A stretch of 64,000 nucleotides of DNA from an uncultured Gemmatimonadales bacterium (GCA_963798085.1 CAWCRS010000008.1:416001-480000), one strand, 5' to 3'; shown: positions 6,292 through 63,510, counted from the first letter of the stretch. Numbers and translations are program-made. The notes: generated from the sequence alone by a model not told the origin.

Positions 6292-6356
6292 TTCGGGCAG
6301 CCCGCGGCCGCCGCGGGCGACCTTAACATACCGTTAGAGAGAGACCCGGAGCAGGG

Positions 6357-8384
6357 ATGCGACTGGTCGTGCAGTACCCCGACGATGCCGGGGTGCAGGT
6401 GGACGGCGAGCTAGTGGGCCGCACCAACAGCGTGCTGCGGCTGGGCCCGGGCACGCACCGGATCCGCCTGGCGGATGCGGGGGCCGCGCAGCCGGAAGAG
6501 CACCAGGTCACGGAAGACCCGTCGTCGCCTGACGCCGTCTGCTTCGTGCGCTTCGTGCCCCAGAATGCGGTGCTGGACCGCTTCTCCCCGCTCTACTGCT
6601 GCTACAACGGCTTCCTGCTGGGCCAGTTCCTGGCACTCAGTTTCGCCGCCTATGCGCGCGAAGGTTACGGCATTCGCCGGGCGCGCATGCAGGAATTCCT
6701 GCAGGAAATCGGCGTCGCGGAAACGCTGCCGGAAGAGCCGATCCCCTTCGGCTCGGACGCGTACGACACGCTGGTGCAGCGCATCCTCACGGCCGTGCAC
6801 GGCGCGAGCGAAGTGCTGGCCGATTACGCCTTCCTCGGCTTCGAAGCCATCTTCTACGGCCACCTCGCCGCCGTCCAGGATCCCACCGCGGAGCAGATGG
6901 CGGCGCACATGGAGGAGCTGCGCACGCGCCGGGGGCTGCCGCCGCTGGACCTGGCGACGCTGGTGCCGCAGCGGCACGGTGATAACGACACATTATCAAT
7001 CGACGACGTGCTCTCGCCCTCGCTGGCATGGCTGGCGGAAGTGGTGCAGGGCATGGAGCCGGAGCCGGACACGGCGTTCGTCATCATGCCGTTCGCGCCG
7101 CCCTGGGCCGGCTATTTCGCGACCTTCTACCGGCCCGCGCTGGAAGCCGCCGGCTGCCGCGCGTTCCGGGCGTGGGGCGGGCTCTCCAACGAGCAGTACG
7201 CGGACCTGCTGCTGGCGCTGATCGCGCGCTCGGGTCTGGTGTGGGCGGACATCTCGGAGCGCAATCCCAACGTGCTGTACGAAATCGGCGCGGCGCACGC
7301 GTTCGGCCGCATGGCCGTGCTGCTGGTGCACGAGGATCAGGCGGCCCTGGTGCCGGCCAACATTGGGCACGATGCGGTGATCACGTACTCGCCGTCGGCG
7401 GAAGATTTTCCGGACGGGATGGTGCGCCTCATGGGCATGCTCATTGGGGCCATGCGTCTCTCGGCGAAGCACGGCGAGCACTTCCGTGTGGGGCGCGGCG
7501 ATCTCGAGACAGCGATCGATGCAGCAGGCGAGCGGCTGAAGCAGATCCTGGTTCCGCCGGAAGCGCGCGAGGCGCTGCAGCACGGCCAGGAACTGCTGGA
7601 CAGCCAGCAGTTCGAGGCGGCGGAGACGGCCTTCACTGACGCCATCGAGCTGGGTCTGGACGATGCCGAGGCCTACGCCTGGCGAGGCCTGGCGCGCGTC
7701 GGGCGCGAAGAGTACGCGGCCGCGGCGACGGACCTCACCGAAGCGATCGAGCGCGGCTACCAGAAGCCGCCGCTGTTTCGCATGCGGGGCCTGGCGCGCA
7801 ACCAGATCGATGACAACGAGGGCGCGGACGCCGACTTCACGGCCTATCTCGAAGGCGCGCCCGACGACGCCGAGGTGTGGTACTTCCGTGGCGCGGCAAG
7901 GCAGTCGCTGGGGCGCTGGGCGGAGGCGGACATGGATTTCAGCGAGGCGCTGGCACGCGGCTTCGACAGCGCGGAGCTGCAGCAGTGTCGCACGTGGGTG
8001 AATATCCGGCTGGGTCATGCGGACGCCGCGCGGCACGCCTGGGAGCGGGCTGCGGCGCAGGCGCCGGATGCGGCCGCCACGGTAGCGCGGCAGGGGGACC
8101 TGCTGCTGGCGGATCACGAATACGGCGAAGCGGTTGCGGCCTACGAGCGGGCGCTGGCGGCCGAGCCACTGGCCGAGCGCCAGTTCGAGCTGGGTGTGGC
8201 GCTGCTGCTGGACGGCCGGGCGGGAGAAGCGCAGCCGCATTATGCGCAGGGCCTGACCACTGCCACGCCGCTGGAGGTCCGGCACGCGCTGGAAGAGCTG
8301 CGGTTCTGGGCCGAACAGGCGCCGGGTGCGGACCTGCTCCGGCAGGAGCTGGAAGCCACGGCCGGCGCTCCGGTTGCGGAGTAG
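6357..8384 (+). CDS. Multidomain protein: PEGA-like N-terminus, nucleoside 2-deoxyribosyltransferase/TIR-like domain, TPR repeats
   Basis: GVQVDGELVGRTNSVLRLGPGTHRIRL; AFVIMPF...ADISERNPNVLYEIGAAHA; repeated AYAWRGLAR / WYFRGAAR TPR helices. Confidence 0.7.
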   Translation: MRLVVQYPDDAGVQVDGELVGRTNSVLRLGPGTHRIRLADAGAAQPEEHQVTEDPSSPDAVCFVRFVPQNAVLDRFSPLYCCYNGFLLGQFLALSFAAYAREGYGIRRARMQEFLQEIGVAETLPEEPIPFGSDAYDTLVQRILTAVHGASEVLADYAFLGFEAIFYGHLAAVQDPTAEQMAAHMEELRTRRGLPPLDLATLVPQRHGDNDTLSIDDVLSPSLAWLAEVVQGMEPEPDTAFVIMPFAPPWAGYFATFYRPALEAAGCRAFRAWGGLSNEQYADLLLALIARSGLVWADISERNPNVLYEIGAAHAFGRMAVLLVHEDQAALVPANIGHDAVITYSPSAEDFPDGMVRLMGMLIGAMRLSAKHGEHFRVGRGDLETAIDAAGERLKQILVPPEAREALQHGQELLDSQQFEAAETAFTDAIELGLDDAEAYAWRGLARVGREEYAAAATDLTEAIERGYQKPPLFRMRGLARNQIDDNEGADADFTAYLEGAPDDAEVWYFRGAARQSLGRWAEADMDFSEALARGFDSAELQQCRTWVNIRLGHADAARHAWERAAAQAPDAAATVARQGDLLLADHEYGEAVAAYERALAAEPLAERQFELGVALLLDGRAGEAQPHYAQGLTTATPLEVRHALEELRFWAEQAPGADLLRQELEATAGAPVAE

Positions 8385-8494
8385 CGCCGAATGTGTCGAT
8401 CCTGAATGCAGTCGATTCTCCCACATCCAGGCCGGCAGGCCTCGCCTGACCGCCGACGGTCGGCGGCGGCCGCGGACAAGCCCGAGGTAGATTC

Positions 8495-9734
8495 TTGAGC
8501 GGAAGCACGCCGGTGGCGGAGGCTTTTTTTGCCCGGCAGCCCATCTTCGACCAGCAAGGCAACGCGCTCGCGTATGAGCTGCTGTACCGACCCTCGCCGG
8601 ACGCGACCAGTGCGGCGGGCGGCGATCCCATCGCGATGGCCATCCAGGTTGCGACCGATGCCATGCTGGGGATGAACCTGGAGACCGTGACGGATGGCCT
8701 GCCCGCATTCGTGAATGCGACGCGCGAGATCCTGATCGACGGACCGCTCGAGGGAATGGACCCCGCCAGGATCGTGATCGAGGTGCTGGAAACGGTCGAG
8801 CCGGACGAACAGGTGATGCGCGCCATCGCGAATCTGTCGAAGCGCGGGCATCGCATTGCACTGGACGACTGGTTCGAGAACGATCCGCGCACGCCCATGC
8901 TCGAGTACGCGTCCATCATCAAAGTCGATGTGCTGGACCGCACGGTGGCGGCGGCCGCGGAACTCGTGCGGCCGCACAGCGGCCGCAAGCTGAAGCTGCT
9001 CGCCGAGCGCGTGGAGACATCCGAGGTGCATGACGAGTCGGTGGCCGCGGGCTTCGAGTGGTTCCAGGGCTACTTCTATCGCAAACCCGAGATCGTGCGG
9101 CAGCGCGACCTGCGTCCCGAGCAGCTGTCCGTGATCCAGGCCATGAACCTGGTGCAGGATGACTGCGGTGCCGGACCATCGCATTGGCGCATTCTTCAAG
9201 CAGGATCCGTCACTCACGTACAAGCTCGTGCGCATGGCCAACGTCGCGCCGATGGGTGTGCGGCAGGTGGAATCGGTGGAGCACGCGGTGGCGATCGTGG
9301 GTCGCGCGGCGATCTTCCGCTGGCTGGCACTTCTGCTCGCGGGTTCCTTCCAGCGGGGCAGCGGCGTCAAGCGTGAGCTGCTGCGCGAGGCGCTGATCCG
9401 TGCAAAGGTCTGTGAGCTGCTCGCACCGGCGGCGCGCATCGGGCAGTCCGGTCACATGTTTCTGGTGGGGCTCTTCTCACGCATCGAAGCGCTGCTGGGC
9501 GTGCCCATCGAGTCGATCGTCAAGCACGTGGTGCTGCCGCAGCCGGTATCGGAAGCACTGACCAGTTCGGCGGGTCGCTACGGCGCCGTGCTGTCGTTAG
9601 CCGAAGCGTATGAGGATGCGCGCTTCGGAGAGATCCTCAAGCTGGCGGAAGCGGCGGGACTGGCGGCCGCGGAAGTGCCGAACGCCTACAGGCAGGCGCT
9701 CGAATGGTCGCTCGAGGTCAGCCGCACGATCTGA
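8495..9734 (+). pseudogene. EAL-HDOD domain protein (YuxH/PdeH-like), frameshifted near 9165
   Basis: ORF 8495 has ARQPIFD..AYELLYR, IALDDW, LLAERVET, FQGYFY. The HDOD half (QDPSLTYKLVRMAN, FLVGLFSRIEALL) continues in another frame (9159..9734). May be a sequencing error. Confidence 0.8.
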
Positions 9735-9738
9735 TCAC

Positions 9739-11271
9739 TCAGCGGAAGATGCTGCGTTCGCCGCTGATGCTGCGGGGACGGCTGGCCGACTGTGACGCAG
9801 CCAACTGGTCGAGCTGACGTGTCAGCTCGGGTGCGGAGTACCAGCGACCCTTCACCAGCACGCCGGACCTCGCCTTCACGTTGTGCACGTCCGCGAGCGG
9901 ATTGGCGCTGAGCAGCAGCAGATCCGCGCGCAAACCTTCCGCAACGGTACCGAACTCACCGGTCCGGCCCAGGAACTCGGCCGCGTTGCGCGTCGCCATC
10001 TGCAGCACCTGCGCGGGCGTCAGGCCGGCGGCCGCGAGCATCTCGAGTTCTTCATTGATGGCGAAGCCCGGCAGCACGTAGGGGAAGCCGCCATCCGTGC
10101 CCACCATCATACGCACGCCGGCATCGAAGAACGCCTTCGTCGACTGATTCTCGTTGGCGATGGTGGCGGCGCGCGCGGTGCCGCTGGCCCAGGGTCCCCG
10201 GCCTACCCAGTCGAAGATCAGGTCCTGCGGCAGGTAGCGCATTTCGGGTCTCGACTGGAACGCGGCCTCTTCCGCGGGCGTGAGCATGGCGCGCAGTGTG
10301 ACCAGCGTGGGCGTGCTCCACATGTGTGCGCTGACGAGTCGCTGTGCCAGCTGCCGCATCTTCGAGACGTCCAGTGATGTGTCCCAGCCGCCCTGCGCGT
10401 TGCCCGCGCTGCGCACTTCCGGAAGATAGGCGCCCGCCATGTGCTCGATGGACAGCTGACCCGACGCGAGCACGCGCGTGACGCCTGCCGCGAAGGGTGC
10501 GTGCCCGGCGAAGGCGATGCCACGACTGCGAGCGGAAGCCGCGACCGCATCGAATACGGGCGCAGAAAGATGCTCGTACACTTTCAGGAAGTCGTAACCC
10601 GCGGACTTCAGTAATGCGACGTTGGTATCGGCCTTGGCGGGATCGGTGATCAGGATCGTGCGCGGCCATTGCACGATGCCATCGATGCCGGGACTGGAGA
10701 CGAACATGCGCGGTCCGAGGATCTCGCCGGACTCGACGCGCGTGCGAAAGGCGAGATGACCGGTGGATCCCCACATCTCGCGCACGGTGGTGACACCGTT
10801 CGCCACGTAGAGCAGCGCTTCCAATGTGTAGACCATGTGCACGTGCATGTCGGCCAGGCCGGGCATGAGGAAGCGGCACGTGCCGTCGATCACCGTAGCC
10901 GTGGCCGGAGCCGCGAGCGTCGCGGCGCTGCCGATCCGCTCAATGACGCCGTGATCGAGCAGCACCGTGCGGTCGCGCTGCACAGCCTCGCCCGTCATGG
11001 GAATGATGTTGACGTGCGTGATGGCGATCTCGCCGGTGGCCGTGGTGGGCAGCACCTGGACCGGCGGATCGCAGTTGAGGTCCACGCTCATGGGATCGTC
11101 GTGACACGCGGCCAGCGCCAGCCATCCCACGAGCGTCACGGATTGCAGGCGACGACGCCGCGTCGATCTCTGCTTCCTGCTGTCTGACAATGTGTTTGGG
11201 CCGGCGGCACGCGCGGCCGGGCTGGCCGGTGGTGGCGCGCAGGCGGATGCGGGCAGGATGGTCGCTCTCAT
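9739..11271 (-). CDS. Metal-dependent amidohydrolase family protein (probable lipoprotein)
   Basis: LMPGLADMHVH, NGVTTVREM, MVGTDGG, GTVAEGLRADLLLLSANPL; LAAC lipobox; start uncertain. Confidence 0.88.
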   Translation of the reverse strand: MRATILPASACAPPPASPAARAAGPNTLSDSRKQRSTRRRRLQSVTLVGWLALAACHDDPMSVDLNCDPPVQVLPTTATGEIAITHVNIIPMTGEAVQRDRTVLLDHGVIERIGSAATLAAPATATVIDGTCRFLMPGLADMHVHMVYTLEALLYVANGVTTVREMWGSTGHLAFRTRVESGEILGPRMFVSSPGIDGIVQWPRTILITDPAKADTNVALLKSAGYDFLKVYEHLSAPVFDAVAASARSRGIAFAGHAPFAAGVTRVLASGQLSIEHMAGAYLPEVRSAGNAQGGWDTSLDVSKMRQLAQRLVSAHMWSTPTLVTLRAMLTPAEEAAFQSRPEMRYLPQDLIFDWVGRGPWASGTARAATIANENQSTKAFFDAGVRMMVGTDGGFPYVLPGFAINEELEMLAAAGLTPAQVLQMATRNAAEFLGRTGEFGTVAEGLRADLLLLSANPLADVHNVKARSGVLVKGRWYSAPELTRQLDQLAASQSASRPRSISGERSIFR

Positions 11272-11390
11272 GGTCCCGCCCTTCCAGCAGGTGTGCGAGA
11301 AGCAGATCCGTCAATCAGGGGAACGCATCGTCAGGATCGAACGAAACGCGCCGGCGCGCAAGTCACGCGAGCGCGCAACAAATCGTCGCA

Positions 11391-13100
11391 TCAGCGATTG
11401 TGCTCGAAATCGCGATGGGCGTTCTCGCGCCGATAGGCGGCGACGGCGGCGCACGACGCGTCGGCCTGCTCTGGTGTTACCTCGGCGGGCACGCGGAAGA
11501 GCCATGTGCGCGGCGGAAACACTTCCGCGACAGCGAGCTGGCGGCAGTTGGCCGCCACGAGATCCACCAGGCGAGCGGGCTCCATCAGCTCGAGGCTGCC
11601 CAGCAGGATCCACGCGGCCCCGCGCTGCTGCAGCCACGGCAGGAACGACGCACTGTCCTGCGAGAGTGCGCGCGCCCAGGAAACGGCCTGCCGGCCCGTG
11701 TAGCGATAGAGCGCACCCGATTTGACGGCGAGCAGGTGCGCATCGGGTGGTGTGTTCGCGCGGATCCAGCGCAATGCCTCGAAGTAGCTCTTCTGATCCG
11801 TGAACAGACAGGAAGCGGGCGGGAGGTCGCCGCTGCGGTCACACACCATGTTGGTGCGTGCCTGCGCGACGGAGCGCGCACCACCACTGATGCCCAGGAG
11901 CAGCGCGAGTGCCAGGGCCGCGGGTAACGCGAATGTTTGGCGCACGCGGCCGGCCAGCCACGCGGCACCGAGCAGCATGGTGACGATGAGCAGCGGCACC
12001 ACAGGCAACAGGAAGCGCTCGACGGCCCACAGCCACACGATCATCAGCAGCGCATAGCACAACAGATACAGCGCAGCCGGCCGCCAGCGCCGCCAGAGCA
12101 CCCACGCACCGGCACCGAGCGTCGCAGCCAGCAGCATGGCGAGGGCCACGTTGTCGATGGGCGTGCCCGCGACACTGGGCAGAGACAGCTCCCAGGGCAG
12201 TGCACGGGTGGCATAGAACGCGAGCGCATCGAGCGAGCGGCGAGGCAGTGGTGGCATGAAGGCGCTGCCGCTCCACAGCGAGCGCAGTTCCGCTGCATAG
12301 TTGGAGCCCACGGCGAGCGTTGGGCCGAGCGCGAGCGACACGAGCCACGCGCCCACCGCGCACACGCCGATGGTCGCAATGGGCACAACCATGCGCCAGC
12401 GTTTCTCCAGTGCCCAGTGCAGCAGCAGCGCAGCCAGCAGTGTGACGCCCACCATGCGCGTGAGGGAGGCATAAAGCGCTGCGACGGCGGCGAGTGCCAG
12501 CCAGCGTTGCGCGTGATGCGTGGGCAGGCGCGAGGCATTCGCGCCGAATGCGCCGGCGGATTCGCCCTCGCCTGGAGCGCCCGCCGCGCGCAGCACCGCG
12601 TAGAGCGCGAGCAGTGACAACAGCGTGTATGCGGCTTCCGAGCGGATGGCGCCGCCGAAGTGCACGAACTCGGGATTGAGAGCGGTCACGAGCGCGGCGG
12701 CCGCAGCCAGGCGAGGATCGGCAACGCGGCGTACCGCGAGGAAGATCACGATCAGGCTGCCCAGCGAGAGCAGCAGGCTGAGCGCGACGAGCGCATCGTA
12801 GCCATCGCCCAGCACGCCGCCCCAGAGCGCGAGCAGCACGGGATACCCGGGTGGGTACTGCGCCCTCGCCGGCGGATCGGAGCGGAAGAGGAGGTGGTAG
12901 CCGCCGTGTCGCAGCGACTGGCCGAGCACAATGTACTCGACGTCGTCCTGGCCGGTGAGAATACCGGGATCACGCGCGAGCCAGGCGAGCAGCGCGTGCG
13001 CGACGAGCGCGGCCAGGAGCAGGGCGAAGGCAATGCGACGCGCAGCCCAAGCCGCGTCGTCGCCTCGATCCCGGATCGCGTGAGCCGCCCCCATCATCAC
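11391..13100 (-). CDS. GT-C fold membrane glycosyltransferase (ArnT/PMT-like)
   Basis: DDVEYIVLGQSL, YPPGYPVLLAL, IRSEAAY, ERFLLPVVP; many TM segments. Confidence 0.75.
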   Translation of the reverse strand: MMMGAAHAIRDRGDDAAWAARRIAFALLLAALVAHALLAWLARDPGILTGQDDVEYIVLGQSLRHGGYHLLFRSDPPARAQYPPGYPVLLALWGGVLGDGYDALVALSLLLSLGSLIVIFLAVRRVADPRLAAAAALVTALNPEFVHFGGAIRSEAAYTLLSLLALYAVLRAAGAPGEGESAGAFGANASRLPTHHAQRWLALAAVAALYASLTRMVGVTLLAALLLHWALEKRWRMVVPIATIGVCAVGAWLVSLALGPTLAVGSNYAAELRSLWSGSAFMPPLPRRSLDALAFYATRALPWELSLPSVAGTPIDNVALAMLLAATLGAGAWVLWRRWRPAALYLLCYALLMIVWLWAVERFLLPVVPLLIVTMLLGAAWLAGRVRQTFALPAALALALLLGISGGARSVAQARTNMVCDRSGDLPPASCLFTDQKSYFEALRWIRANTPPDAHLLAVKSGALYRYTGRQAVSWARALSQDSASFLPWLQQRGAAWILLGSLELMEPARLVDLVAANCRQLAVAEVFPPRTWLFRVPAEVTPEQADASCAAVAAYRRENAHRDFEHNR

Positions 13101-13231
13101 GGCAGAAACATACGCGCTTCGGGCCGGGTCCGCCGCCCGGATCGCGCGCGGCCTTGACCGCGAGGCCCCACGGGGCCAAGCATCAGGCGCGACGACGGGG
13201 TGTGCGTCGCTGTACTACCGTTGCGTCAGGC

Positions 13232-13954
13232 ATGAACACGCGGCTCGAGCTGGAGATAGAGGGGCAACCCGACGACGCGTCCTGCGGGCCCGCCTGCCTG
13301 CACGCGGTCTATCGCTTTTTCGGCGACGACATCGCGCAGGAGCGGGTGATCGCCGAAGTGGAGCTGCTGGACACGGGCGGTACGCTCGCGGTGCTGCTCG
13401 CGCTGCACGCGTTGCGCCGCGGCTTTCGTGCGACCATCTACACGTACAACCTGCAGCTCTTCGATCCGACGTGGTTCCACGGCGGCGGTGTGAATCTGGC
13501 CGAGCGGCTGGAGGTGCAGGCGGCGGAGAAGGAGGACAACAAGCTGCGCTTCACGACGCAGGCGTACATCGAGTATCTGTCGCTGGGCGGCGTGGTCCGG
13601 TTCGAAGAGTTGAATCCCGGTCTGATCCGTTCCTTCCTCGAACGGCGCCTGCCGGTGCTGACGGGGCTTTCGGCCACATACCTGTACGACTGTGCCCGGG
13701 AGACCGGCTGGGCCAAGCTGGAATACGATGATGTGCGTGGCCACCCGACCGGTCATTTCGTGGTGCTGAGCGGGTACGACGCGGCACGCGACGAGGTGCG
13801 CGTCGCCGATCCGCTGAAGGACAATCCCGGCTACGGCACGCATGACTACGCCGTCGGCATGCAGCGCCTGCTGGGCGCGATCCTGCTGGGCGTGCTCACC
13901 TATGATGCGAACATCCTGATTCTCGAGCCCGGTCGTGGAGGCAGGCGCGCGTGA
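13232..13954 (+). CDS. C39-like papain-fold cysteine peptidase
   Basis: QPDDASCGPACL (Cys), GHFVVLSGYD (His), VADP (Asp). Confidence 0.85.
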   Translation: MNTRLELEIEGQPDDASCGPACLHAVYRFFGDDIAQERVIAEVELLDTGGTLAVLLALHALRRGFRATIYTYNLQLFDPTWFHGGGVNLAERLEVQAAEKEDNKLRFTTQAYIEYLSLGGVVRFEELNPGLIRSFLERRLPVLTGLSATYLYDCARETGWAKLEYDDVRGHPTGHFVVLSGYDAARDEVRVADPLKDNPGYGTHDYAVGMQRLLGAILLGVLTYDANILILEPGRGGRRA

Positions 13955-15426
13955 GAACGTTGCTGGTGGTGGAGAAACCGGAGCGCTGGCCGTTCGATGT
14001 GCCGGGCGCGCAGATCGTCTCGGGGTGGGACTACCTGACACGGGCACAGTACGCGGAAACGCGGCGCATTGCGGTCTACAACGCGTGTCGCGTGTACGGC
14101 TATCAGCGACTTGGCTATTACGTGTCACTGCTGGCCGCAGCGAGAGGCCATCGCGTGATGCCCGACGTGGAGACGCTGCAGGCGTTCGGCGTCGGACCCC
14201 TCGCGCGCATCGCATCAGAAGAACTGGACGAGATGATCCAGCGCGCGCTGGCGCCGCTCACCGAGAGCGAACTGGAGCTGAGCATCTACTTCGGGCACAA
14301 CGTGGCGCCGCGCTTCGAAACACTGAGCAAGGCGCTGTTCAATCAGTTTCCCGCCCCGTTCCTGCGCGCCATGTTCGCGCGCGGCAAGCACGAATGGCGG
14401 CTGGAATCGATCCGCCCGCTGGCGGGACACGATGTACCGGAAGAGCATCGCGATTTCGCCATCGAGAGAGCCAGTGCGTTCCTGGCGAAAGGCGGGCGCA
14501 CGCCGCAGCCGCCGCAGCCCGAACCCTGGGATCTGGCGATTCTCTGGGATGAGAAAGCGCCGGACAGCGCATCCGATGAAGCCGCCATCCGCCGATTCAT
14601 CCGCGTGGCCAAGAAGGTGGGCATTGATGCCGACATCATCGAAGCCGACGACTATCAGCGGCTGGCCGAGTTCGATGCACTGTTCATTCGCGATACCACG
14701 AGCGTCAACCACTACACGTATCGCTTCGCGCAGCGCGGCGTGGCGGAAGGCCTGGTCGTGATCGACGACCCGCAGTCCATCATCCGCTGCAGCAACAAGG
14801 TCTATCAGGCCGAGCTGTTCGTTCGCTACGACATCCCGCACCCGCGCACGCTCATCGTGCACGCCGAGAACGTGGACCGCGTGGTTGCCGAGACAGGCTT
14901 TCCCTGCGTGCTCAAGCGACCCGATGCTTCTTTCTCCGCGGGCGTGGTCAAGGCCGAGGACCAGGCCGCACTGGCGCAGCACTTGAAGTCGTTCTTCGAC
15001 TCCTCCATGATGGTGGTCGCGCAGGAGTACCTCCCCTCGGAATTCGACTGGCGCATTGGCGTGCTGGACGGCCGCGCACTGTACGCGTGCCGCTATTTCA
15101 TGGTGCGCGGACACTGGCAGATCGTGCACCGCCGCGATGGCGGAATGCACCGCTATGGCAAGGTGGAGACCGTGCCCATCGAGGAGGCGCCCGCGGTGGC
15201 GGTGCAGCTGGCCGTGCGCTGCGCCCGCCTGATCGGCAACGGCCTGTATGGCGTGGACATCAAGGAAGCGGACGGCAAGTTCTACGTGATCGAGGTCAAT
15301 GACAATCCGAACATCGACAGTGGTGTGGAGGACGAAGTGCTGAAGGACGATCTCTACCTGGCGGTGATGCAGCTCTTCCGCGATCGCCTGGATGCACGAC
15401 GCGCACCCGAGGAGGCCGTGAAGTGA
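13951..15426 (+). CDS. RimK-family ATP-grasp ligase with RLAN N-terminal domain
   Basis: YNACRVYGYQRLGYYVSLLAAARGH (RLAN); FDALFIRDTT, VLKRPDASFSAGV, QEYLPSEFDWRIGVL, YGVDIK, VIEVNDNPNID. Confidence 0.9.
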   Translation: MRTLLVVEKPERWPFDVPGAQIVSGWDYLTRAQYAETRRIAVYNACRVYGYQRLGYYVSLLAAARGHRVMPDVETLQAFGVGPLARIASEELDEMIQRALAPLTESELELSIYFGHNVAPRFETLSKALFNQFPAPFLRAMFARGKHEWRLESIRPLAGHDVPEEHRDFAIERASAFLAKGGRTPQPPQPEPWDLAILWDEKAPDSASDEAAIRRFIRVAKKVGIDADIIEADDYQRLAEFDALFIRDTTSVNHYTYRFAQRGVAEGLVVIDDPQSIIRCSNKVYQAELFVRYDIPHPRTLIVHAENVDRVVAETGFPCVLKRPDASFSAGVVKAEDQAALAQHLKSFFDSSMMVVAQEYLPSEFDWRIGVLDGRALYACRYFMVRGHWQIVHRRDGGMHRYGKVETVPIEEAPAVAVQLAVRCARLIGNGLYGVDIKEADGKFYVIEVNDNPNIDSGVEDEVLKDDLYLAVMQLFRDRLDARRAPEEAVK

Positions 15427-16295: not shown

Positions 16296-16302
16296 CGGTG
16301 GC

Positions 16303-49418: not shown

Positions 49419-49427
49419 GCGCCCGCG

Positions 49428-52045: not shown

Positions 52046-52083
52046 CGGCTCGCTAACGAGGAGTCAGGCGCGGCACCGGACTC

Positions 52084-53182: not shown

Positions 53183-53184
53183 CC

Positions 53185-53976: not shown

Positions 53977-53987
53977 GCCGGAACGGC

Positions 53988-54210
53988 GTTGCTGGGGCTG
54001 GTTGCTGGGGCTGGTTGCTCGGGAACCGAAACGTGCTCATAACCATGCGTTAGAGTCGATGCACCGTGACGAGCGCTCCGTTCCTGCGAGGCTTCCCTCC
54101 TCTGACAAGGCATTGTCCGTTCCCCGGCAACCAGCCCGAGCCCCAGCAACGAGATCGAATCTGTTCTGTTCCGGCCGTTCCCCAGCAGTCCAGCCCCAGC
54201 AACCAGCAAC
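53988..54210. repeat. Intergenic REP-like element built from 13-bp GTTGCTGGGGCTG units in direct and inverted orientation
   Basis: Direct copies at 53988, 54001 and 54014 (partial); inverted (C)AGCCCCAGCAAC copies within 54119-54150 and 54177-54210. Confidence 0.75.
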
Positions 54211-54215
54211 GTCCG

Positions 54216-55160: not shown

Positions 55161-55233
55161 CCGGCGCCGCACGCAGCCGCGCGCGGCGCACGCAATCGCC
55201 TGTTACCACAACCAGACACGCGGAGAACCACGG

Positions 55234-56940
55234 ATGCAGGCGCCAACCGGAAAGCCGGAAGCGGGACCCCTGGATCGACGGGCATTCGTCGCCTTCTTCA
55301 GTGGTATTGGTCTGGGCGGCACGCTGCTGCCGGGCGTGCTCTGGGCGCAGGCGCAGCCGCAGGGCGTGGTCACGACGGCGATGATCAGCGATGCGGAGAA
55401 GATCGCCGGCCTCGAGTTCACGGATGCGGAACGCGAGGCCATGGCCAGAGGCCTGGATCAGAATCTGCGCGCCTGGGAGCAGGTGCGCGCGGTGGAGCTG
55501 CCCAACGCCGTGAGCCCCGCCTTCATCTTCGATCCCGTGCCGCCGGGCATGGCGCTGCCGTCGGAGCGCCGCAAACTGCGTGTCAGTGATGCGCCGCGCG
55601 TCGAGCGGCCCGCCAATCTCGAGGAAGCGGCGTTCTGGAGCGTGCGCCAGCTGGCCGAGCTGGTGCGCACACGCGGCGCCACGGCTACGGAACTGACCCG
55701 GATGTACCTCGCCCGGCTGAAGCGCCACGGCCCCACGCTGCAGGCGGTGATCACGCTCACGGAAGAGCGCGCCATGGACCAGGCGAAGCGCGCCGACCAG
55801 GAGATCGCGGCCGGTCGTTATCGCGGACCCCTGCACGGCATACCGTGGGGCGCTAAGGATCTGTTTGCCGTGAGCGGCTACCGCACGACGTGGGGGGCGA
55901 AGCCGTACGCAGACCAGCTGCTCGATGTGGACGCGACGGTCGTGCAGCGGCTCGACGAAGCCGGCGCCATTCTCATTGCCAAGCTCACCCTGGGCGCGCT
56001 GGCGCAGGGCGATCAATGGTATGGCGGCCAGACGAAGAACCCGTGGAACCTGGAGCAGGGCTCGAGCGGCTCTTCCGCCGGATCCGCGGCGTGCACGGCC
56101 GCCGGCCTCGTGGGTTTCGCGCTGGGCACGGAAACGCAGGGTTCCATCGTCTCGCCGTCCACGCGCTGCGGCGTCACGGGACTGCGGCCCACGTTCGGGC
56201 GCGTCAGCCGCCATGGCGCCATGGCGCTGTGCTGGACCATGGACAAGGTGGGACCGCTCTGCCGCAGCGTGGAAGACTGCGCGCTGGTGTTCGCGGCCAT
56301 TCAGGGACCGGACGGCCACGACAACACGGTGCGTGACCTGCCCTTCAACTGGGACGCGACGGTGAAGCCCGAAGGCCTGCGCGTCGGCTATCTGAAGAGC
56401 GCGTTCGACGAGGATCACGAGACGAAGGTCTTCGACGACGCGTCGCTCGCCGTGCTGCGCCGCATGGGCGTGAACCCGGTGCCGGTGGCGCTGCCCGATG
56501 CCTACCCGGTGGCGCCGCTGCGCACCATCCTGAACGTGGAATCCGCAGCCGCGTTCGACGAGCTGACACGCAGCAACCGCGACGATCTGATGGAGCGCAG
56601 CACCTGGCCCAACAGCTTCCGCACCGCGCGCCTGATCCCCGCGGTCGAGTACATCCAGGCCATGCGCCTGCGCACCCGCGTCATGGCGGCCACTAACGAA
56701 GCGTTAAAGGACATCGACGTGCTGGTGGCGCCGTCGCTGGCCGGCAATCTCGTCGCGCACACCAATCACACGGGCCACCCGTGCGTGGTCCTGCCCAGCG
56801 GCTTCCGCGAGAACGGCACGCCCGTGAGCCTCTCGTTCATCGGCCGGCTCTACGGCGAGGCGGAGGCACTGGCGCTGGCGAAGGCGTACCAGGACGCCAC
56901 CGACTTCCACACGAAGCACCCGCCGCTGTTCCGCACATGA
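55234..56940 (+). CDS. Amidase signature family enzyme (Tat-exported)
   Basis: DRRAFV Tat motif; GPLHGIPWGAKDL, GSSGSSAGS, GTETQGSIVSPS. Confidence 0.92.
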   Translation: MQAPTGKPEAGPLDRRAFVAFFSGIGLGGTLLPGVLWAQAQPQGVVTTAMISDAEKIAGLEFTDAEREAMARGLDQNLRAWEQVRAVELPNAVSPAFIFDPVPPGMALPSERRKLRVSDAPRVERPANLEEAAFWSVRQLAELVRTRGATATELTRMYLARLKRHGPTLQAVITLTEERAMDQAKRADQEIAAGRYRGPLHGIPWGAKDLFAVSGYRTTWGAKPYADQLLDVDATVVQRLDEAGAILIAKLTLGALAQGDQWYGGQTKNPWNLEQGSSGSSAGSAACTAAGLVGFALGTETQGSIVSPSTRCGVTGLRPTFGRVSRHGAMALCWTMDKVGPLCRSVEDCALVFAAIQGPDGHDNTVRDLPFNWDATVKPEGLRVGYLKSAFDEDHETKVFDDASLAVLRRMGVNPVPVALPDAYPVAPLRTILNVESAAAFDELTRSNRDDLMERSTWPNSFRTARLIPAVEYIQAMRLRTRVMAATNEALKDIDVLVAPSLAGNLVAHTNHTGHPCVVLPSGFRENGTPVSLSFIGRLYGEAEALALAKAYQDATDFHTKHPPLFRT

Positions 56941-57608
56941 GACAGGAGCATCTCGCGGTCACGCGTCACGCCCGCCTCTGTCTCCTGGGCGAAGCCGGGC
57001 CCGGCGTGCGCGAGGTCTGGATCGCGGTCCACGGCTACGGGCAGCTGGCCGGGCGCTTCCTGCGACGCTTCGCCACGCTCGCGGACGGCACCCGCCTGAT
57101 CGTCGCGCCCGAGGCGCTCAACCGCTTCTACGTCGAGGGCGGGATGGGACCGCACGGGCCGGAGACACGCGTGGGCGGCACCTGGATGACGAGCGAAGAT
57201 CGGCTGGTCGACATCGACGACTACGTCGCCTACCTGGACGCCGTGCACGACTACGCGGTCCGGGGACTGGACCGGTCCGCCATGCGGGTAGTGGCGCTGG
57301 GCTTTTCGCAGGGGATGTCCACCATAGCGCGCTGGGCCGCGCGCAGTGCCGCACGGGTAGACGACCTGATCCTCTGGGCGGGGAGCTTCCCGCCCGAGAT
57401 GGACGTGCGGCCGGACCTGTTTGGCGGCGCTCGCCTGTCGCTGGTCTACGGCACACAGGATCGTTACGCGAACGAGGCGATGATCCTCGGGCTGGTGCAG
57501 CGGCTGCAGGCCGGTGGTATCGATCCCGCGATCGTGCGCTATCCGGGCGGTCACGAAATCGAGCAGGCGACGCTTCGCAGTCTGGCATCGCCGGCCGCTT
57601 CGCCATAG
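56937..57608 (+). CDS. Phospholipase/carboxylesterase alpha/beta hydrolase
   Basis: HGYGQLA, LGFSQG, GTQD, GGHEI; ATGA overlap with the amidase. Confidence 0.85.
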   Translation: MRQEHLAVTRHARLCLLGEAGPGVREVWIAVHGYGQLAGRFLRRFATLADGTRLIVAPEALNRFYVEGGMGPHGPETRVGGTWMTSEDRLVDIDDYVAYLDAVHDYAVRGLDRSAMRVVALGFSQGMSTIARWAARSAARVDDLILWAGSFPPEMDVRPDLFGGARLSLVYGTQDRYANEAMILGLVQRLQAGGIDPAIVRYPGGHEIEQATLRSLASPAASP

Positions 57609-57739
57609 GCCGCGGGCTTCTGCACAAGAGGCGGACGATCGGGGCGCAAGTCCGGGCCGCCGGTGTATGAAGGCCACGCCCCGCAGTCCAGGGGTCTGTC
57701 CGGAGGTCCCATCACGCATGTGCGGTACCGTGAAAAGCG

Positions 57740-58867
57740 ATGAAGCGTAACGGCCTGCCGGCCGCCCGGCCGGCCGAGCTTCCACCCGGCTGGGCGCTGC
57801 GCCGTTACGAAGTCGCGCTGATCCTGGCCGGCTGGTCCGCGGTCGGCATCGTCTTCACCGGGCAGCTGCTGGCGTACACGGCGCAGATCGGGCTGGGCTG
57901 GTCGATCTGGCAATCGGCAGCGGTGGCGTTCACGCAGGCGACGGCGTGGGCCATGATCACCATCGTCGCCTTCGCCCTGTCCCGCCGCTTTCCGCTGGAC
58001 CAGAAGCCTCGCCTGGCAAGACTGCTCATCCACACCGTTGCCAGCATGGTGCTCGCCACGATGGAAGTCGTCATCGAGTACGGGTTCGGCGTCATCGTGC
58101 GGCCCGTGCGGCCGGGTCCCTTCATGGAGGCGTTCTTCCAGGGTTTCCCGTTCAACGTGGTAGTGGTGTGGATGATGGTGGGCGTGGCGCACGGCCTCAT
58201 GTTCTACCGCCGGTACCGCGAGCGTGATGCGCAAGCCGCGGCGCTGACCAGCCGGCTGGCGCTCGCGGAGCTGCAGGTGCTGAAGTCGCAGCTGCACCCG
58301 CATTTCCTGTTCAATGCACTGAACACGATTTCCGCGCTCATGCACCGGGATGTGAAGTCGGCGGACCGCATGATTGCGCGGCTCAGCGATCTGCTGCGTG
58401 CCGCTCTGGAACACACGGCGGAGCAGGAGGTCTCACTGCTGGAGGAGCTGAATTTCCTCGAGTCGTATCTGGAGATCGAACGTACCCGCCTGGCGGACCG
58501 CCTCACCATCGAGGTGGATGTGCCGCCCAACGTGCTGGATGCGCGCGTGCCGCACATGATCCTGCAGCCGCTGGTGGAGAATGCCATTCGCTACGGCGTC
58601 GCGCCGCGCGCGGCGCCCGGTCACGTCACCATCCGGGCACGTGGCCGCCGCGACATGCTGGACATCGAAGTGCTGGATGACGGTCCGGGCATGCGTCCCG
58701 GACGGTCGCCTAACGGTGGGTTGGGCCTGGCGAACACCTTCGCCCGGCTGCAGAAGCTGTACGGAGAGCAGTTCAGTTTCGAGCCGCGCAATCGCGCCGA
58801 AGGCGGGTTTCGTGTCTCGCTGTCCATTCCCTTCGACCCCATCGACGAGGACGTAGCCGCCGAGTGA
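57740..58867 (+). CDS. LytS-family sensor histidine kinase
   Basis: Four TM segments; LKSQLHPHFLFNALN, LQPLVENAIRYG, GLGLAN. Confidence 0.93.
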   Translation: MKRNGLPAARPAELPPGWALRRYEVALILAGWSAVGIVFTGQLLAYTAQIGLGWSIWQSAAVAFTQATAWAMITIVAFALSRRFPLDQKPRLARLLIHTVASMVLATMEVVIEYGFGVIVRPVRPGPFMEAFFQGFPFNVVVVWMMVGVAHGLMFYRRYRERDAQAAALTSRLALAELQVLKSQLHPHFLFNALNTISALMHRDVKSADRMIARLSDLLRAALEHTAEQEVSLLEELNFLESYLEIERTRLADRLTIEVDVPPNVLDARVPHMILQPLVENAIRYGVAPRAAPGHVTIRARGRRDMLDIEVLDDGPGMRPGRSPNGGLGLANTFARLQKLYGEQFSFEPRNRAEGGFRVSLSIPFDPIDEDVAAE

Positions 58868-59640
58868 GGACGCCTGTGAAGATGAGAGTTCTGATCGCCG
58901 AGGATGAGCCGCTCGCGCGCGAGCGCATCCGTGCCCTGCTGAACGAAGAGACGGACGTGGAGATCGCCGCCGAATGCCCGGACGGCCGTTCCGCGGTCAA
59001 TGCCATCCGCCTGCACGATCCCGACCTGGTGTTTCTCGACGTGAACATGCCGGAGCTGAACGGTTTCAATGTGATCCGCGAGATCGGCGCCGAGGCCATG
59101 CCGCCCGTGATTTTCGTGACCGCGTACGACCAGTTCGCGGTGCAGGCCTTCGATGCGCACGCGCTGGACTACGTACTCAAGCCGTTCGATGAGGAGCGCT
59201 TTCGCACGGCCGTCGAGCGCGCGCGGGAAGCGCTGACGCGCAACAGCACGGATTCGCTGGACCGCCGCCTGAACGATCTGCTGCAGGGACTGGGCGGCCG
59301 CCCGCGCTACGTCGAGCGCCTGGCCGTGAAGTCCGGCGGCAAGATCATCTTCCTCAAGACCGAGGAAGTGACGTGGATCGGCGCCGAGGGCAACTACGCG
59401 CGGCTGCACGCCGGCAAGCGCTCCTACCTCATGCGCGAGACCATGTCCAACCTGGAGTCGAAGCTGGATCCCGGTCGCTTCATCCGTATCCACCGCTCGA
59501 CCATTGTGAGCACCGATGCGATTGCCGAGCTGGAGCCACTGTTCCAGGGTGACTACGTGGTGGTGCTGCGCGATGGCACTCGCCTCACGTCCAGTCGCGG
59601 GTACCGCGGCAACCTGCAGGCGTTCATGAACGAGGGCTGA
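58864..59640 (+). CDS. LytTR-family response regulator
   Basis: EDEPLAR, FLDVNMP, FVTAYD, LKPF, FIRIHRSTIV. Confidence 0.93.
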   Translation: MRTPVKMRVLIAEDEPLARERIRALLNEETDVEIAAECPDGRSAVNAIRLHDPDLVFLDVNMPELNGFNVIREIGAEAMPPVIFVTAYDQFAVQAFDAHALDYVLKPFDEERFRTAVERAREALTRNSTDSLDRRLNDLLQGLGGRPRYVERLAVKSGGKIIFLKTEEVTWIGAEGNYARLHAGKRSYLMRETMSNLESKLDPGRFIRIHRSTIVSTDAIAELEPLFQGDYVVVLRDGTRLTSSRGYRGNLQAFMNEG

Positions 59641-59697
59641 CCGCGCCCGCCCGGACACACGACAACAACCGCGGCGCGTGCCGCGCATCGGAGAAGC

Positions 59698-61284
59698 ATG
59701 AAACAGCTTGTCAGCCTGACAGCTCTGGCGATCGCGCTGGCCGCCTGCGCGGGCAACCCGCCGCTCGCCTCGACCCGGCGGCCGACGTCCACTGCGCAGG
59801 GCGCTAACAGTGCGTCAGAGAGCAGCAGCAGCGCCGCCCTGGCGCGCGCGGCCGCCACCATCACGCCGGAAGACATGTACCGGCGCATCGCCTATCTCTC
59901 CAGTGATGCGCTGGGCGGGCGTGACACGCCGAGCCCCGGCCTGGAGACGGCGGCCGCCTGGGTGGCCGATCAGTTCCGGACGTTCGGCCTGCGCCCCGCC
60001 GGCGACAGCGGCACGTACGTGCAGCGCTGGCCCTACAAGCGGTCCTCGTTCATCGTGAGCGGCACAACGCTGCGCATCGCCGCGGGCAGCAGCGCGGTGA
60101 CGCCCATCATTGGCGCCGACTTCTTTCTGCTGCCGGCGGCGGGCGTCCCCGGTGCGACCGGCACACTGGTGTGGGCCGGTACCGCGCACGCAGGCCGCGC
60201 CGCACTGGGACCCGAAGTGGCGCGCAGATTCGTCGCGTTCTTTCTGCCGGGCAAGGATACCGACAAGGACTGGCAGGCTGGCATCCAGGCCGCCGCCCTG
60301 GCCGCCCTGGGCGCCGGCCCCGCGGGCGTGATCGTCATCCTCGATCCCGCGTTCGACGATGGCGAGATCAGCCAGATCGTGGGCGAGACCGCCGCCCAGG
60401 AGCTGCCCGCGTTTCTGATCGGACTCAGTTACGCCTCCGCGAAGCAGGTCTTCTCGGCCGCGGGCCAGGACCTGGATGCGCTGCGCAGCGGGAAGGCGAC
60501 GACGCTGCTTCCGCTCTCCAACACCAATGTCAGCATCAGCGTGGCCCGCGAGGTGAACGAGTCGCAGCCACCCAACGTCGTCGGCATCCTCGAAGGCAGT
60601 GATCCCGCACTGCGCAACGAGTACGTCGTGGTGGGCGGCCACATGGATCACATCGGCATCGGTCCGCCCGATGCGTCCGGTGATTCCATCTTCAATGGCG
60701 CCGACGATGATGCCTCCGGCACTTCCACCATGATCGAAGTGGCACAGGCGTTCGCGTCGCTGCCGGCACGGCCCGCGCGCTCCATGATCTTCCTGGGCGT
60801 GAGCGGCGAAGAGAAAGGCCTGCTCGGATCCGCGTATTTCACGGAGCACACGCCCGTGCCCAGGGACCACATCGTCGCGGACATCAACCTGGACATGGTG
60901 GGGCGCAACGCGCCGGATACGGTCGTCGCCATTGGTCAGGACTACTCGTCGCTCGGCCCCGTGACGCAGAAGATCGCGAAGCAGCATCCCGAGCTGGGCC
61001 TGGTCGTCGCCCCCGATCTATGGCCCGAGGAAGGTCTGTTCTTCCGCAGCGATCATTTCAACTTCGCCAGGGCCGGCATCCCGGCCATCTTCTTCACCAC
61101 CGGCCTGCACCCGCAGTATCACAAGCAGTCCGATGAAGTGCAGCTGATCGACGAGGACAAGGTCAGCCGTGTCGGCAGGCTCGTCTTCTACCTCGCCTGG
61201 GAGGTGGCCAACGCGCCGCAGGCGCCGAAATGGACGGCGAAGGGGCTTTCCGACGTGCGCGCCATGACCGCCAACGTGCACTGA
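59698..61284 (+). CDS. M28 family metallopeptidase lipoprotein
   Basis: LAAC lipobox; GGHMDH, NGADDDASG, GEEKGLLGS, NLDMVGR, RSDH, YHKQSD. Confidence 0.92.
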   Translation: MKQLVSLTALAIALAACAGNPPLASTRRPTSTAQGANSASESSSSAALARAAATITPEDMYRRIAYLSSDALGGRDTPSPGLETAAAWVADQFRTFGLRPAGDSGTYVQRWPYKRSSFIVSGTTLRIAAGSSAVTPIIGADFFLLPAAGVPGATGTLVWAGTAHAGRAALGPEVARRFVAFFLPGKDTDKDWQAGIQAAALAALGAGPAGVIVILDPAFDDGEISQIVGETAAQELPAFLIGLSYASAKQVFSAAGQDLDALRSGKATTLLPLSNTNVSISVAREVNESQPPNVVGILEGSDPALRNEYVVVGGHMDHIGIGPPDASGDSIFNGADDDASGTSTMIEVAQAFASLPARPARSMIFLGVSGEEKGLLGSAYFTEHTPVPRDHIVADINLDMVGRNAPDTVVAIGQDYSSLGPVTQKIAKQHPELGLVVAPDLWPEEGLFFRSDHFNFARAGIPAIFFTTGLHPQYHKQSDEVQLIDEDKVSRVGRLVFYLAWEVANAPQAPKWTAKGLSDVRAMTANVH

Positions 61285-61433
61285 AGCGGGTGGCGTGACT
61301 GGCGCCCGCGGTTGCGGCGGGGCCCGTCGCCTTGACAGTTGTCGTTGCCGCGGCCAGAGGCGGGTGGGTGCGAAGCAGACCTGCATAACATGACATTATC
61401 AGGGAGCCGGGCCCTTCGTGAACGGAGAGGTCG

Positions 61434-62573
61434 ATGCGGGAGGAATTGCGGGAAGCGGTGCGCGCGCTGTGCCGGCGCTACGGCGAGGCGTACTGGCAGC
61501 GCATCGACCGCGAGCGGGCCTATCCGGAAGCGTTCGTACAGGAGCTGACCGAACAGGGCTGGCTGGCCTGCCTCATCCCCGCCGAATACGGCGGCGCCGG
61601 CCTGCACACCGCGGATGCCGGTGTCATCCTCGAGGAAGTGAACCGCTCGGGCGCGAATTCCGCCGCTTGCCACGCGCAGATGTACACCATGAGCGTACTG
61701 CTGCGCCACGGCTCGGAGCAGCAGAAGCGTGCGTATCTGCCGCGCATCGCCCGCGGTGAGCTGCGCCTGCAGGCGTTCGCCGTGACGGAGCCCGATGCCG
61801 GTTCCGATACTACCCGCATCAGCACGACAGCCGAGCGCAGCGGCGACCACTACGTGGTGCGCGGGCGCAAGGTGTTCATCTCCCGCGTGCAGCACTCCGA
61901 CCTCATGATCCTGCTGGCGCGCACATCGCCGCGCGAGCAGGCGAAGAAGAAGACCGACGGCCTGAGCGTCTTCCTGGTGGATCTGCGGCAGGCCGGGAAC
62001 GCCCTCAGCGTGCATCCCATCGAGACCATGATCAACCACGAGACGAACGAGGTGGTGTTCGATGGCCTCGAAGTGCCGGTGCAGAATCGCATTGGCGAGG
62101 AAGGCGAGGGCTTCACGTACATCCTGAGCGGCATGAACGCGGAGCGCATCCTGCTCGCATCGGAATCGATCGGCGATGCGCTGTTTTTCATCGACCGCGC
62201 CAGCGCGTACGCCGGCCAGCGCATCGTGTTCGACCGACCCATTGGCCGGAACCAGGGCGTGCAGTTCCCGCTGGCCGAGGCGTACATCCGGACCCGCGCG
62301 GCCGCGGCGCTGCGTGATGAAGCGGCCGCGCGCTTCGATGCCGGCGAGCCCGCCGGACCCGAGGCGAACATGTGCAAGTACGCGGCATCGGAAGCGGCGT
62401 GGCAAGCGGCGAATGCCGCCATGACCACGTTTGGCGGCTATGGCCTGAGCGCCGAATACGGCATCGAGCGCAAGTTCCGCGAGGCCCGCCTCTATCTCGT
62501 TGCGCCTGTCTCGAACAACCTGATCCTCGGCTACGTGGGCCAGCACGTGCTGGGCATGCCGAAGTCGTGGTGA
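61434..62573 (+). CDS. Acyl-CoA dehydrogenase
   Basis: FAVTEPDAGSD, RIGEEGEGF, FDRPIGRNQGVQFPLA, FGGYG, ERKFREARL. Confidence 0.92.
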   Translation: MREELREAVRALCRRYGEAYWQRIDRERAYPEAFVQELTEQGWLACLIPAEYGGAGLHTADAGVILEEVNRSGANSAACHAQMYTMSVLLRHGSEQQKRAYLPRIARGELRLQAFAVTEPDAGSDTTRISTTAERSGDHYVVRGRKVFISRVQHSDLMILLARTSPREQAKKKTDGLSVFLVDLRQAGNALSVHPIETMINHETNEVVFDGLEVPVQNRIGEEGEGFTYILSGMNAERILLASESIGDALFFIDRASAYAGQRIVFDRPIGRNQGVQFPLAEAYIRTRAAAALRDEAAARFDAGEPAGPEANMCKYAASEAAWQAANAAMTTFGGYGLSAEYGIERKFREARLYLVAPVSNNLILGYVGQHVLGMPKSW

Positions 62574-63424
62574 GCGCGACGATGCGCTGCCGCAGCCTGC
62601 TCTTCGTCCCCGGGGACCGGCCCGACCGTCACGCGAAGGCACTGGCCGCAGGCGCGGACTTCGTGTGCATCGACCTCGAAGATGCCGTGGCGCCGCCGGC
62701 GAAGGACGCTGCGCGCGTCGTCGCCTGCGATCTGCTGCGAAACGAGCCCGCTAACGCCGCGTCAGTGGCGATCCGGGTCAACGACATCAAGACGCAGGCC
62801 GGTGTGCGCGACCTGCTCGCGCTCGGCGAGGCGGATACGCCGCCCGCTTTGCTGGTGCTGCCCAAGGTGCGCTCGGCCGCGGAGGTCGAGTGGGCGCGCG
62901 GTGTGCTGGATCCCCGCCTTCCCGTTCGCGGCATCATCGCCATCATCGAAACCGTGGAGGCGCTGGCGTGTGCTGGCGCTATCGCGCGCGCGGGTGCCGC
63001 CGCCCTGATCTTCGGCGGGACGGACCTGTCCGCGGAGCTGGGGTGCCGGCCGGAATGGGAGCCGCTGCTCTACGCACGTTCACGGGTGGTGCACGCGGCT
63101 GCGGGCGGTGGCATTCCGGCGATCGATGTGCCGCTGCTCGATTTCCAGAACACGGATCGGCTGCAGCAGGACTGCCGGCGTGCACGCGACCTCGGCTTCA
63201 GCGGCAAGGCCGCCATCCATCCGGCGCAGCTCGCGTTCATCCACGCCGCCTTCACACCCTCGGCGGCGGAGACGGCGTGGGCCCGGCGCGTACTGGAAGC
63301 CTCCGACCAGGCGCGCGGCGGCGTGGCGACACTGGACGGTCGCATGATCAATGCCGCGGTCGTCCGCTCGGCGCGGCGCATCCTCGCGCTCGCAGGCACG
63401 GATGCGAACAGCAGGACAGGTTGA
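62570..63424 (+). CDS. CitE/HpcH family CoA-ester lyase (citramalyl-CoA lyase-like)
   Basis: RSLLFVPGDRP, IDLEDAV, LPKV, IIET, FGGTDL, GFSGKAAIHPAQ. Confidence 0.88.
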   Translation: MSATMRCRSLLFVPGDRPDRHAKALAAGADFVCIDLEDAVAPPAKDAARVVACDLLRNEPANAASVAIRVNDIKTQAGVRDLLALGEADTPPALLVLPKVRSAAEVEWARGVLDPRLPVRGIIAIIETVEALACAGAIARAGAAALIFGGTDLSAELGCRPEWEPLLYARSRVVHAAAGGGIPAIDVPLLDFQNTDRLQQDCRRARDLGFSGKAAIHPAQLAFIHAAFTPSAAETAWARRVLEASDQARGGVATLDGRMINAAVVRSARRILALAGTDANSRTG

Positions 63425-63510
63425 CCCGGGAGCGACAGCCGTGATCTCGCGCTAACGGGGGATTATCGTTTCGAGTTGAACTGCGGACGCGCATCGTTCA
63501 GAAGCCCTGG

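Follow-up and report, generated by a model that had tools for sequence, protein, structure and literature searches.

A gapped palindrome, TAAC-N5-GTTA, is scattered through the genome of an uncultured Gemmatimonadales bacterium (phylum Gemmatimonadota; GCA_963798085.1, here G000), and we put at roughly 85% the probability that its copies are protein docking sites maintained by some form of selection or drive. The motif was noticed in a stretch of 64,000 nucleotides (G000:C8:416001-480000, hereafter the window) and was followed through the whole genome, which comprises 6.23 Mb in 12 contigs, is 90% complete and was annotated with a simple gene caller made for this analysis (4,984 genes, 80% coding). 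By one G000 protein, whose best match among named genomes was a Longimicrobiales record, the organism would probably belong to that order. TAAC-N5-GTTA occurred 322 times in G000, while 4-mer frequencies predicted 2.6 copies (a 124-fold excess), and it had the top G-score among all pairs of 4-mers at spacings of 2 to 12. TAAC-N6-GTTA was a minor form with 83 copies, other spacings gave 0-5, and graded variants brought the total to approximately 2,000-2,800 sites, depending on the variants admitted.

The first-pass annotation of the window had proposed a DNA-level signal that draws on rare codons, and the genome-wide counts bore this out. The peak at a spacing of five stood clear of codon-preserving controls, with 209 coding sites as compared with 0-7 in eight within-gene synonymous shuffles, and dicodon usage was ruled out as its cause, as three dicodon-aware resamplings gave 1-2. 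In all, 432 of the 1,065 TTA codons (41%) and 71 of the 296 TAA stop codons (24%) of G000 lay within sites. When one half-site was TAAC, the partner was enriched in a graded manner, from TAAC (179-fold), TAAT (126-fold), AAAC (44-fold), TAAG (40-fold) and TAAA (21-fold) down to CAAC (17-fold), TGAC (13-fold), TATC (12-fold), GAAC (10-fold) and TAGC (9-fold). An A directly 3' of TAAC was favoured, more strongly in the N6 form. Most pairs of half-sites were log-additive, and double mismatches were tolerated about equally when they fell in one half or were split over both, which favours a symmetric dimer over an element that writes one fixed half. Since the half-sites are both graded and symmetric, a dimeric binder is predicted.

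The origin of the sites was addressed by comparing 230 orthologous gene pairs between G000 and a 400-kb sample of a genome of the same genus (G001). These genes carried 47 sites in G000 and 2 in G001; 45 of the 47 G000 sites aligned without gaps, and both transitions and transversions had been used. Amino-acid identity at the site codons (128/180, 71%) equalled the background of 71%. Among ADOP permease paralogues, 13 of 46 gained a site at the same peptide through differing synonymous choices, and none of the 71 TAA stops that start a site was followed by in-frame coding-like DNA, as compared with 2.8-4.4% of other stops. The sites thus arose through in-frame point changes, largely synonymous, and not through insertions; the gap-free alignments, background identity, different routes in the ADOP genes and lack of premature-looking stops speak against insertions and base-calling errors alike. 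A mobile-element footprint, or a repetitive extragenic palindromic (REP) or miniature inverted-repeat (MITE) element, was contradicted by the gap-free alignments, by 255 distinct spacers among 538 core sites and by the lack of a flank common to more than five. G000 does hold a degenerate REP-like repeat family ending in TGTGTGA (for example C10:155.7-156.1 kb and C12:61.9-62.4 kb); some of its copies overlap a site, and it thereby supplies a few sites, but it is separate from the motif.

Two further explanations bear on the same data. Sites or scars of a tyrosine recombinase with an integron-integrase- or Xer-like core and a 7-8 bp central region would share the geometry of simple integron sites, and the genome does encode an integrase and contains attC-like hairpins, one of which holds both the N5 and N6 forms. 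We nevertheless consider this very unlikely: there were no indels and no strict 'written' half, the related motif of a second genome (G069, see below) lacks the GTT core, the genome has ordinary XerC/D and a dif-like site, and an integrase fragment of 90% identity occurs in the motif-negative G001. Base-calling errors mediated by DNA modification have reportedly been described in long-read assemblies (PMC10687267), and an assembly of 12 long contigs with some split genes would be open to them. Such an artefact is barely credible here, however, given the stop codons and site-codon identity described above, the related motif in the independent G069 assembly and the mutual avoidance of sites at permissive positions reported below, which errors would not produce.

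With respect to placement, 212 of the 322 perfect sites were intragenic, 86 were intergenic and 24 lay at gene edges, and sites within genes occupied several reading frames. The first-pass annotation had listed a global regulator among its suggestions, and the regulon of a global transcription factor would fit the higher density of perfect sites in intergenic DNA (0.069 per kb, 1.6 times the 0.043 per kb of coding DNA) and the use of the same word as an operator elsewhere. But two thirds of the sites are intragenic, control spacings gave the same intergenic excess, no site was present in the 250 bp upstream of recA, the 7 of 89 padR promoters with a site equalled background, and operators usually cluster, whereas these sites repel one another. 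A promoter regulon is therefore highly improbable.

Density was similar along the large contigs, and the motif was present on all but one small contig. Per 100 kb, 22-39 sites were found around a dif-like site (22-26 in the nearest intervals) and 20-42 around parS, as compared with a mean of 32.8. Sites of the matS, SlmA-binding (SBS), Noc-binding (NBS), parS, KOPS and Chi types are also chromosome-wide and occur within genes, but number tens to hundreds and are tied to the origin, the terminus or one strand; the matS, SBS and NBS types either keep to the terminus region or avoid it, and KOPS and Chi are polarized along the replichores. The motif differs from all of these in being unpolarized and far denser. 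There was at most a mild dip near the dif-like site, with the terminus not excluded, and no general strand polarity; in most 100-kb bins the asymmetric variants were split about evenly between the strands, and a few bins on C2 and C9 were skewed. Of the earlier proposal of a dimeric, genome-wide factor, the two-fold symmetric, graded and nearly log-additive half-sites have stood, while placement of the matS/SBS/NBS kind and a promoter regulon have not.

Density also climbed with the G+C content of third codon positions, from 0.24 to approximately 0.5 per kb between the low and high ends. Several site-poor gaps were annotated with insertion sequence (IS) elements, CRISPR-cas, a broken type I restriction-modification system or toxin-antitoxin genes, and some with ordinary genes. 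Scarcity in recently acquired genes, a trait of DNA uptake sequences (DUS) and uptake signal sequences (USS), was thus shared by the motif. Lysine-rich small genes, used as a proxy for ribosomal proteins, held 2 sites in 23 kb, as compared with 0.385 per kb elsewhere.

The sites avoided one another at short range. Pair counts in successive 100-bp bins were 29, 49, 85, 96 and 103, against 126 expected, and rose to the expected level near 1 kb; four sets of control words clustered instead (first-bin ratios of 1.6-5.1), and only 5 of 2,031 gaps between neighbours were shorter than 60 bp. A cleaner test was restricted to the 16,063 coding positions at which a site is possible without altering the protein; 1,423 of these were filled, and codon usage predicted 103.5. 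Of the 1,308 such positions with another site no more than 150 bp away, 21 were filled (1.6%; observed/expected 2.3-3.5), as were 35 of 794 at 150-225 bp, while beyond 400 bp approximately 9-12% were filled (observed/expected 13.5-17.6). The fitted decay length of the avoidance was 337±57 bp. This exclusion zone suggests that the benefit of a site saturates over a few hundred bases.

At 30-100 bp from a site, the G+C content of four-fold degenerate positions was approximately 1.3 points higher, which would be consistent with a mutational bias linked to methylation or repair. Here a marking enzyme and biased repair would fix site-creating errors and remove site-destroying ones, and a lower mutation rate nearby would cause the repulsion. 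A C at position 4 is required on at least one side and could mark a modified base, an A-to-T distance of 7-8 bp agrees with methylation motifs of the bipartite type, and G000 encodes a type IIG-like methyltransferase accompanied by an SNF2 helicase and, as read from the sequences, a probable type III Mod/Res pair. Even so we regard such a bias as improbable. The motif-negative G001 and G068 carry the type IIG-like gene just as G000 does, the G069 form of the motif loses the second A, strict methyltransferase targets are unlike graded preferences with two spacers, and the rise in G+C content is also predicted if weak A+T-rich sites are excluded near strong ones.

The distribution of the motif among relatives was patchy. 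At the family level (73 genomes) TAAC-N5-GTTA was high in two, G000 with 322 copies and G069 with 46, while G001 had 1; at the class level none of the 401 genomes searched, which did not include G069, stood out besides G000. A 309-kb sample of G069, an unpublished genome on which all statements about its form of the motif rest, revealed a dialect, RTA-N9-TAY, that keeps neither the GTT core nor the second A. GTA-N9-TAC occurred 564 times in G069, as compared with 189 for the N12 spacing, and the ratio was below 1.5-fold in the other 72 family genomes. A pattern spanning both dialects exceeded its control in three of 301 genomes of the order (G000, G069 and G020); these patterns were the only ones searched across genomes. 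G020, likewise an unpublished genome, was not retained as a third positive (93 copies against 38 for a reversed-pattern control), as its 264-kb sample had no spacing peak, and the high counts of G066 and G042 followed from composition alone. G068 was ambiguous, with 32 copies of TAAC-N5-GTT against 7 for N8 but no excess in the GTA-N9-TAC or both-dialect counts. In the 400-kb sample of G001, no kind of gapped palindrome was conspicuous. Repeats in locus L009 were set aside as a related motif, as they flank an IS-type transposase gene. The word is not a trait of the lineage as a whole: it was found in 2 of the 301 order genomes and was nearly absent from a genome of the same genus. Orthologues of G000 and G069, a distant pair of approximately 70% amino-acid identity, shared 0 of 23 and 0 of 7 site positions.

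These results bear on molecular drive, in which the word would be a self-signal favouring the uptake, protection or recombination of site-bearing DNA, as for DUS and USS or the proposed transformation role of HIP1. Site alleles would spread by more frequent transfer, and a second site on a short fragment would add nothing, giving the exclusion zone. We consider drive possible but doubtful. Known uptake sequences are asymmetric and often form close inverted pairs in terminators, unlike the motif, which is a dyad with close pairs depleted; and a gapped, graded palindrome with a spacer of five or six is typical of cytoplasmic helix-turn-helix (HTH) dimers and not of known uptake words. Moreover, Terminase_6N, the one terminase family tried, had no match in G000 or G069. 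A ComEC-like gene was found by motif match, but ComEC is widespread and so is little informative. The dialect in another genus, at unrelated positions, speaks for drive, as do the sites in several frames within genes and their scarcity in foreign-looking genes, both reported for the uptake sequences of Neisseriaceae and Pasteurellaceae, which likewise number thousands of point-mutation copies in coding DNA and have dialects (PMC2817400). For HIP1, which is palindromic too, an enhancing effect on transformation is reported (PMC13756078).

HIP1 (GCGATCGC) is described from cyanobacteria as over-represented 15- to 300-fold in genic and intergenic DNA and in several frames, with one-mismatch variants also favoured and its function debated between chromosome structure and DNA uptake (PMC5861425; PMC13756078). 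The motif resembles it in being strongly over-represented genome-wide in coding and non-coding DNA. However, HIP1-type words are contiguous, 6-8 bp long and coincide with a methyltransferase target, while the motif is gapped (4-5-4), A+T-rich and graded, no matching methyltransferase was found, and it shows a short-range exclusion zone and occurs in 2 of 301 order genomes and not in most of a phylum. The 17-bp dyads of Cluster O mycobacteriophages are closer in form, being gapped with a variable centre, genic and intergenic, independent of promoters and with a predicted dimeric binder, but they comprise 30-50 near-invariant phage sites, while the motif forms thousands of graded sites on a cellular chromosome that has no partner-less ParB (PMC4351075). 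The same half-site and spacer recur in the PcaQ operator ATAAC-N5-GTTAT (PMC3572157), the HSR1 operator CTAAC-N5-GTTAG (PMC2396416) and the CtrA word, as written TTAAC-N5-GTTAAC (PMC7232146), indicating that HTH or winged-HTH dimers can read the word; unlike the motif, these are promoter operators, and G000 has no LysR HTH match. In a literature search that left out most subscription journals, no account of TAAC-N5-GTTA as a genome-wide signal was found. None of the 28 TAAC rows in the supplement of PMC5217627 is TAAC-N5-GTTA, although its method, based on 5-mers with spacers from five up, is blind to some forms of the motif; it lists a weak GTAAC-N7-GTTAC with 13 copies in Acidobacterium capsulatum.

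To return to docking sites, a homodimeric HTH-type protein would read TAAC(A)-N3/4-(T)GTTA with graded affinity, and the sites would form a docking lattice across the chromosome. Each site would confer a small benefit regardless of its location, and site-creating point mutations would have been fixed thousands of times, mostly at synonymous positions, in stop codons and in intergenic DNA, against the G+C-rich codon bias; a force acting per site is needed because thousands of position-free sites were gained by point change against that bias. A second site within approximately 150 bp would add almost nothing, with the benefit recovering by approximately 400 bp, and the bound complex would wrap, coat or organize a stretch of that size. 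We give this coating or organizing role somewhat less than an even chance, and protein binding, the homodimeric state and selection on chromosome organization as the force (as opposed to drive) are each inferred from sequence. Still more tentative is a species-private coating code, in which a new or re-tuned nucleoid protein would cover approximately 150-300 bp per site and would have spread its docking sites, in their thousands, through the genome; a second genus would have undergone the same process on its own, using a shifted word.

Several observations weigh against docking sites of this kind. Where neither half-site had C at position 4, pairs were nearly missing (4 seen, at least 20 predicted), which breaks additivity. 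Neighbouring sites had no helical-phase periodicity (Rayleigh below 1 at 10-11 bp; of the 10 periods tried, one, 11.5 bp, gave a peak, with a value of 7.2), and beyond 1 kb their spacing was near random (coefficient of variation of gaps 0.97) and not that of a regular lattice. In the comparison with G069 orthologues, site codons were less conserved than background (50/88, 57%, against 70%), and therefore some sites involve or prefer variable residues and are not all purely synonymous. A chromosome organizer is also not obviously expected to be missing from a genome of the same genus, and no cognate protein emerged from the candidate families checked.

This search covered 13 guessed protein families, not whole proteomes, with G000 and G069 as positives and G001 and G068 as negatives; none tracked the motif, and G000 may lack the contig with the gene. 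LysR proteins of the PcaQ type were rejected (no PF00126 match in G000; sites mostly intragenic), as was a histone fold (PF00808, no match). HU/IHF had two ordinary copies in all four genomes, and a search with PF02195 found a single ParB per genome, with a similar HTH in all four and parS-like sites adjoining. Integrases were not specific to positives, CRP-type proteins of G000 had no counterpart among the weak G069 matches, and AsnC ligand-domain matches, which were not aligned, occurred in all eight genomes searched. A small XRE gene (window 2314-2517) had relatives in G069 (58%) but also in the motif-negative G013 (62%), so that its tracking was not clean, though it stays a candidate. AbiEi_4 was considered on account of G039 and was not found in G000; in G039:C5 (L010:5625-7127) two TAAC-N5-GTTA copies 43 bp apart lie directly upstream of an AbiEi/AbiEii-like pair and are probably its operators. 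The PadR family (89 paralogues with unrelated promoters) was also rejected. By eye, many G000 padR promoters bear their own distinct palindromes, and the three PadR matches in the window (30137-30430, 35974-36297 and 44306-44653) adjoin ADOP permeases.

LexA was set aside, as the lexA and recA promoters carry a different, direct repeat. In five genomes this TTCGG repeat is kept upstream of lexA (L128, L129-L132), and one like it lies on the opposite strand ahead of G000 recA; it is a candidate SOS box for the family. Separately, a 242-aa protein (G000:C7:1436756-1437484, plus strand; L135:1501-2229) is an in-frame fusion of a LexA-type winged HTH and a TadA-like deaminase domain; the fusion also occurs in G001, G068, G069 and G010, and its HTH is fast-changing. 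The type IIG-like methyltransferase, rejected on its presence in all four genomes, has 1,122 aa and is followed by the SNF2 helicase (G000:C1:262-270 kb; L059:7759-14681); it is approximately 55% identical across the four genomes, below the approximately 70% of typical orthologues (L242-L244).

All 13 window sites of the first-pass annotation were recovered, its coordinates lying one base 5' of TAA, and its six degenerate examples matched their description; of the full symmetry it had given to all 13, only seven sites were perfect. The 13 comprised 7 TAAC-N5-GTTA, 5 TAAC-N5-ATTA and 1 TAAT-N5-GTTA, and the same three patterns were absent from the window at all other spacings in the range 0 to 12. 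By the gene calls, six sites fell inside genes; the other seven were intergenic or at the end of a gene (Table 1).

Table 1. Palindromic sites in the window (variant classes were set by genome-wide enrichment)
Site	Position	Strand	Location or remark
TAAC-N5-GTTA	6324..6336	.	intergenic
TAAC-N5-ATTA	6983..6995	.	within TPR-repeat protein gene 6357-8384 +
TAAC-N5-ATTA	19555..19567	.	intergenic
TAAC-N5-GTTA	22514..22526	.	outside called genes
TAAT-N5-GTTA	25529..25541	.	within called gene 24338-26104 -
TAAC-N5-GTTA	29362..29374	.	right end overlaps 3' end of called gene 29372-29791 -
TAAC-N5-GTTA	32338..32350	.	within ADOP permease gene
TAAC-N5-GTTA	51088..51100	.	within PDZ-domain protein gene
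TAAC-N5-ATTA	51225..51237	.	same PDZ-domain gene as the 51088 site; 137 bp apart, a rare close pair
TAAC-N5-GTTA	54040..54052	.	intergenic
TAAC-N5-GTTA	56694..56706	.	within amidase gene
TAAC-N5-ATTA	61386..61398	.	intergenic
TAAC-N5-ATTA	63453..63465	.	intergenic
38 core and graded-variant sites	575..63465	.	approximately 1 per 1.7 kb
Variants (examples)	16569, 24728, 28093, 31622, 35242, 39256, 39814, 41608, 45417, 45792, 49405, 58711, 59805, 62752		

Other features were noted in passing. The window encodes, at 19583-21130 on the minus strand, a flavin monooxygenase resembling rifampin monooxygenases, with scores under the curated cut-offs. Elsewhere in G000, an integron-type integrase was found together with attC-like hairpins and with cassette-like arrays in which toxin-antitoxin genes abound, at C1:447-464 kb and C2:415-444 kb (L063, L069-L071), and 22 tRNA genes lie in less than 4 kb at C5:189593-193300. 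GAGCTC was strongly depleted (1,404 copies against 4,194 expected), and CTAG stood at 0.17 of expectation.

Taken together, the motif is real, strong and, as far as searched, undescribed, and is unusual in being recent, patchy and self-avoiding; there is a fair chance that it marks a novel chromosome-binding system. Hyper-abundant genome words such as HIP1 and the uptake sequences are few and old, most of them spanning a whole phylum or family, and the cause of their accumulation is still argued. The motif appears to be a recent gain within one genus; another genus has a second dialect, and each of the two has a close negative. This amounts to a natural experiment; a gene-by-gene comparison of the four genomes should expose the responsible protein, and the exclusion zone of 150-400 bp sets a scale by which coating models can be told from uptake models. 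The motif also indicates that a single DNA signal can be responsible for 41% of the occurrences of a rare leucine codon in a genome and for 24% of its TAA stops. If the coating code is true, it would have reshaped codon and stop-codon use, would be a cellular counterpart of the unexplained palindrome lattices of phages, and would act to position a wrapped particle in a genome that has no histone-fold match.

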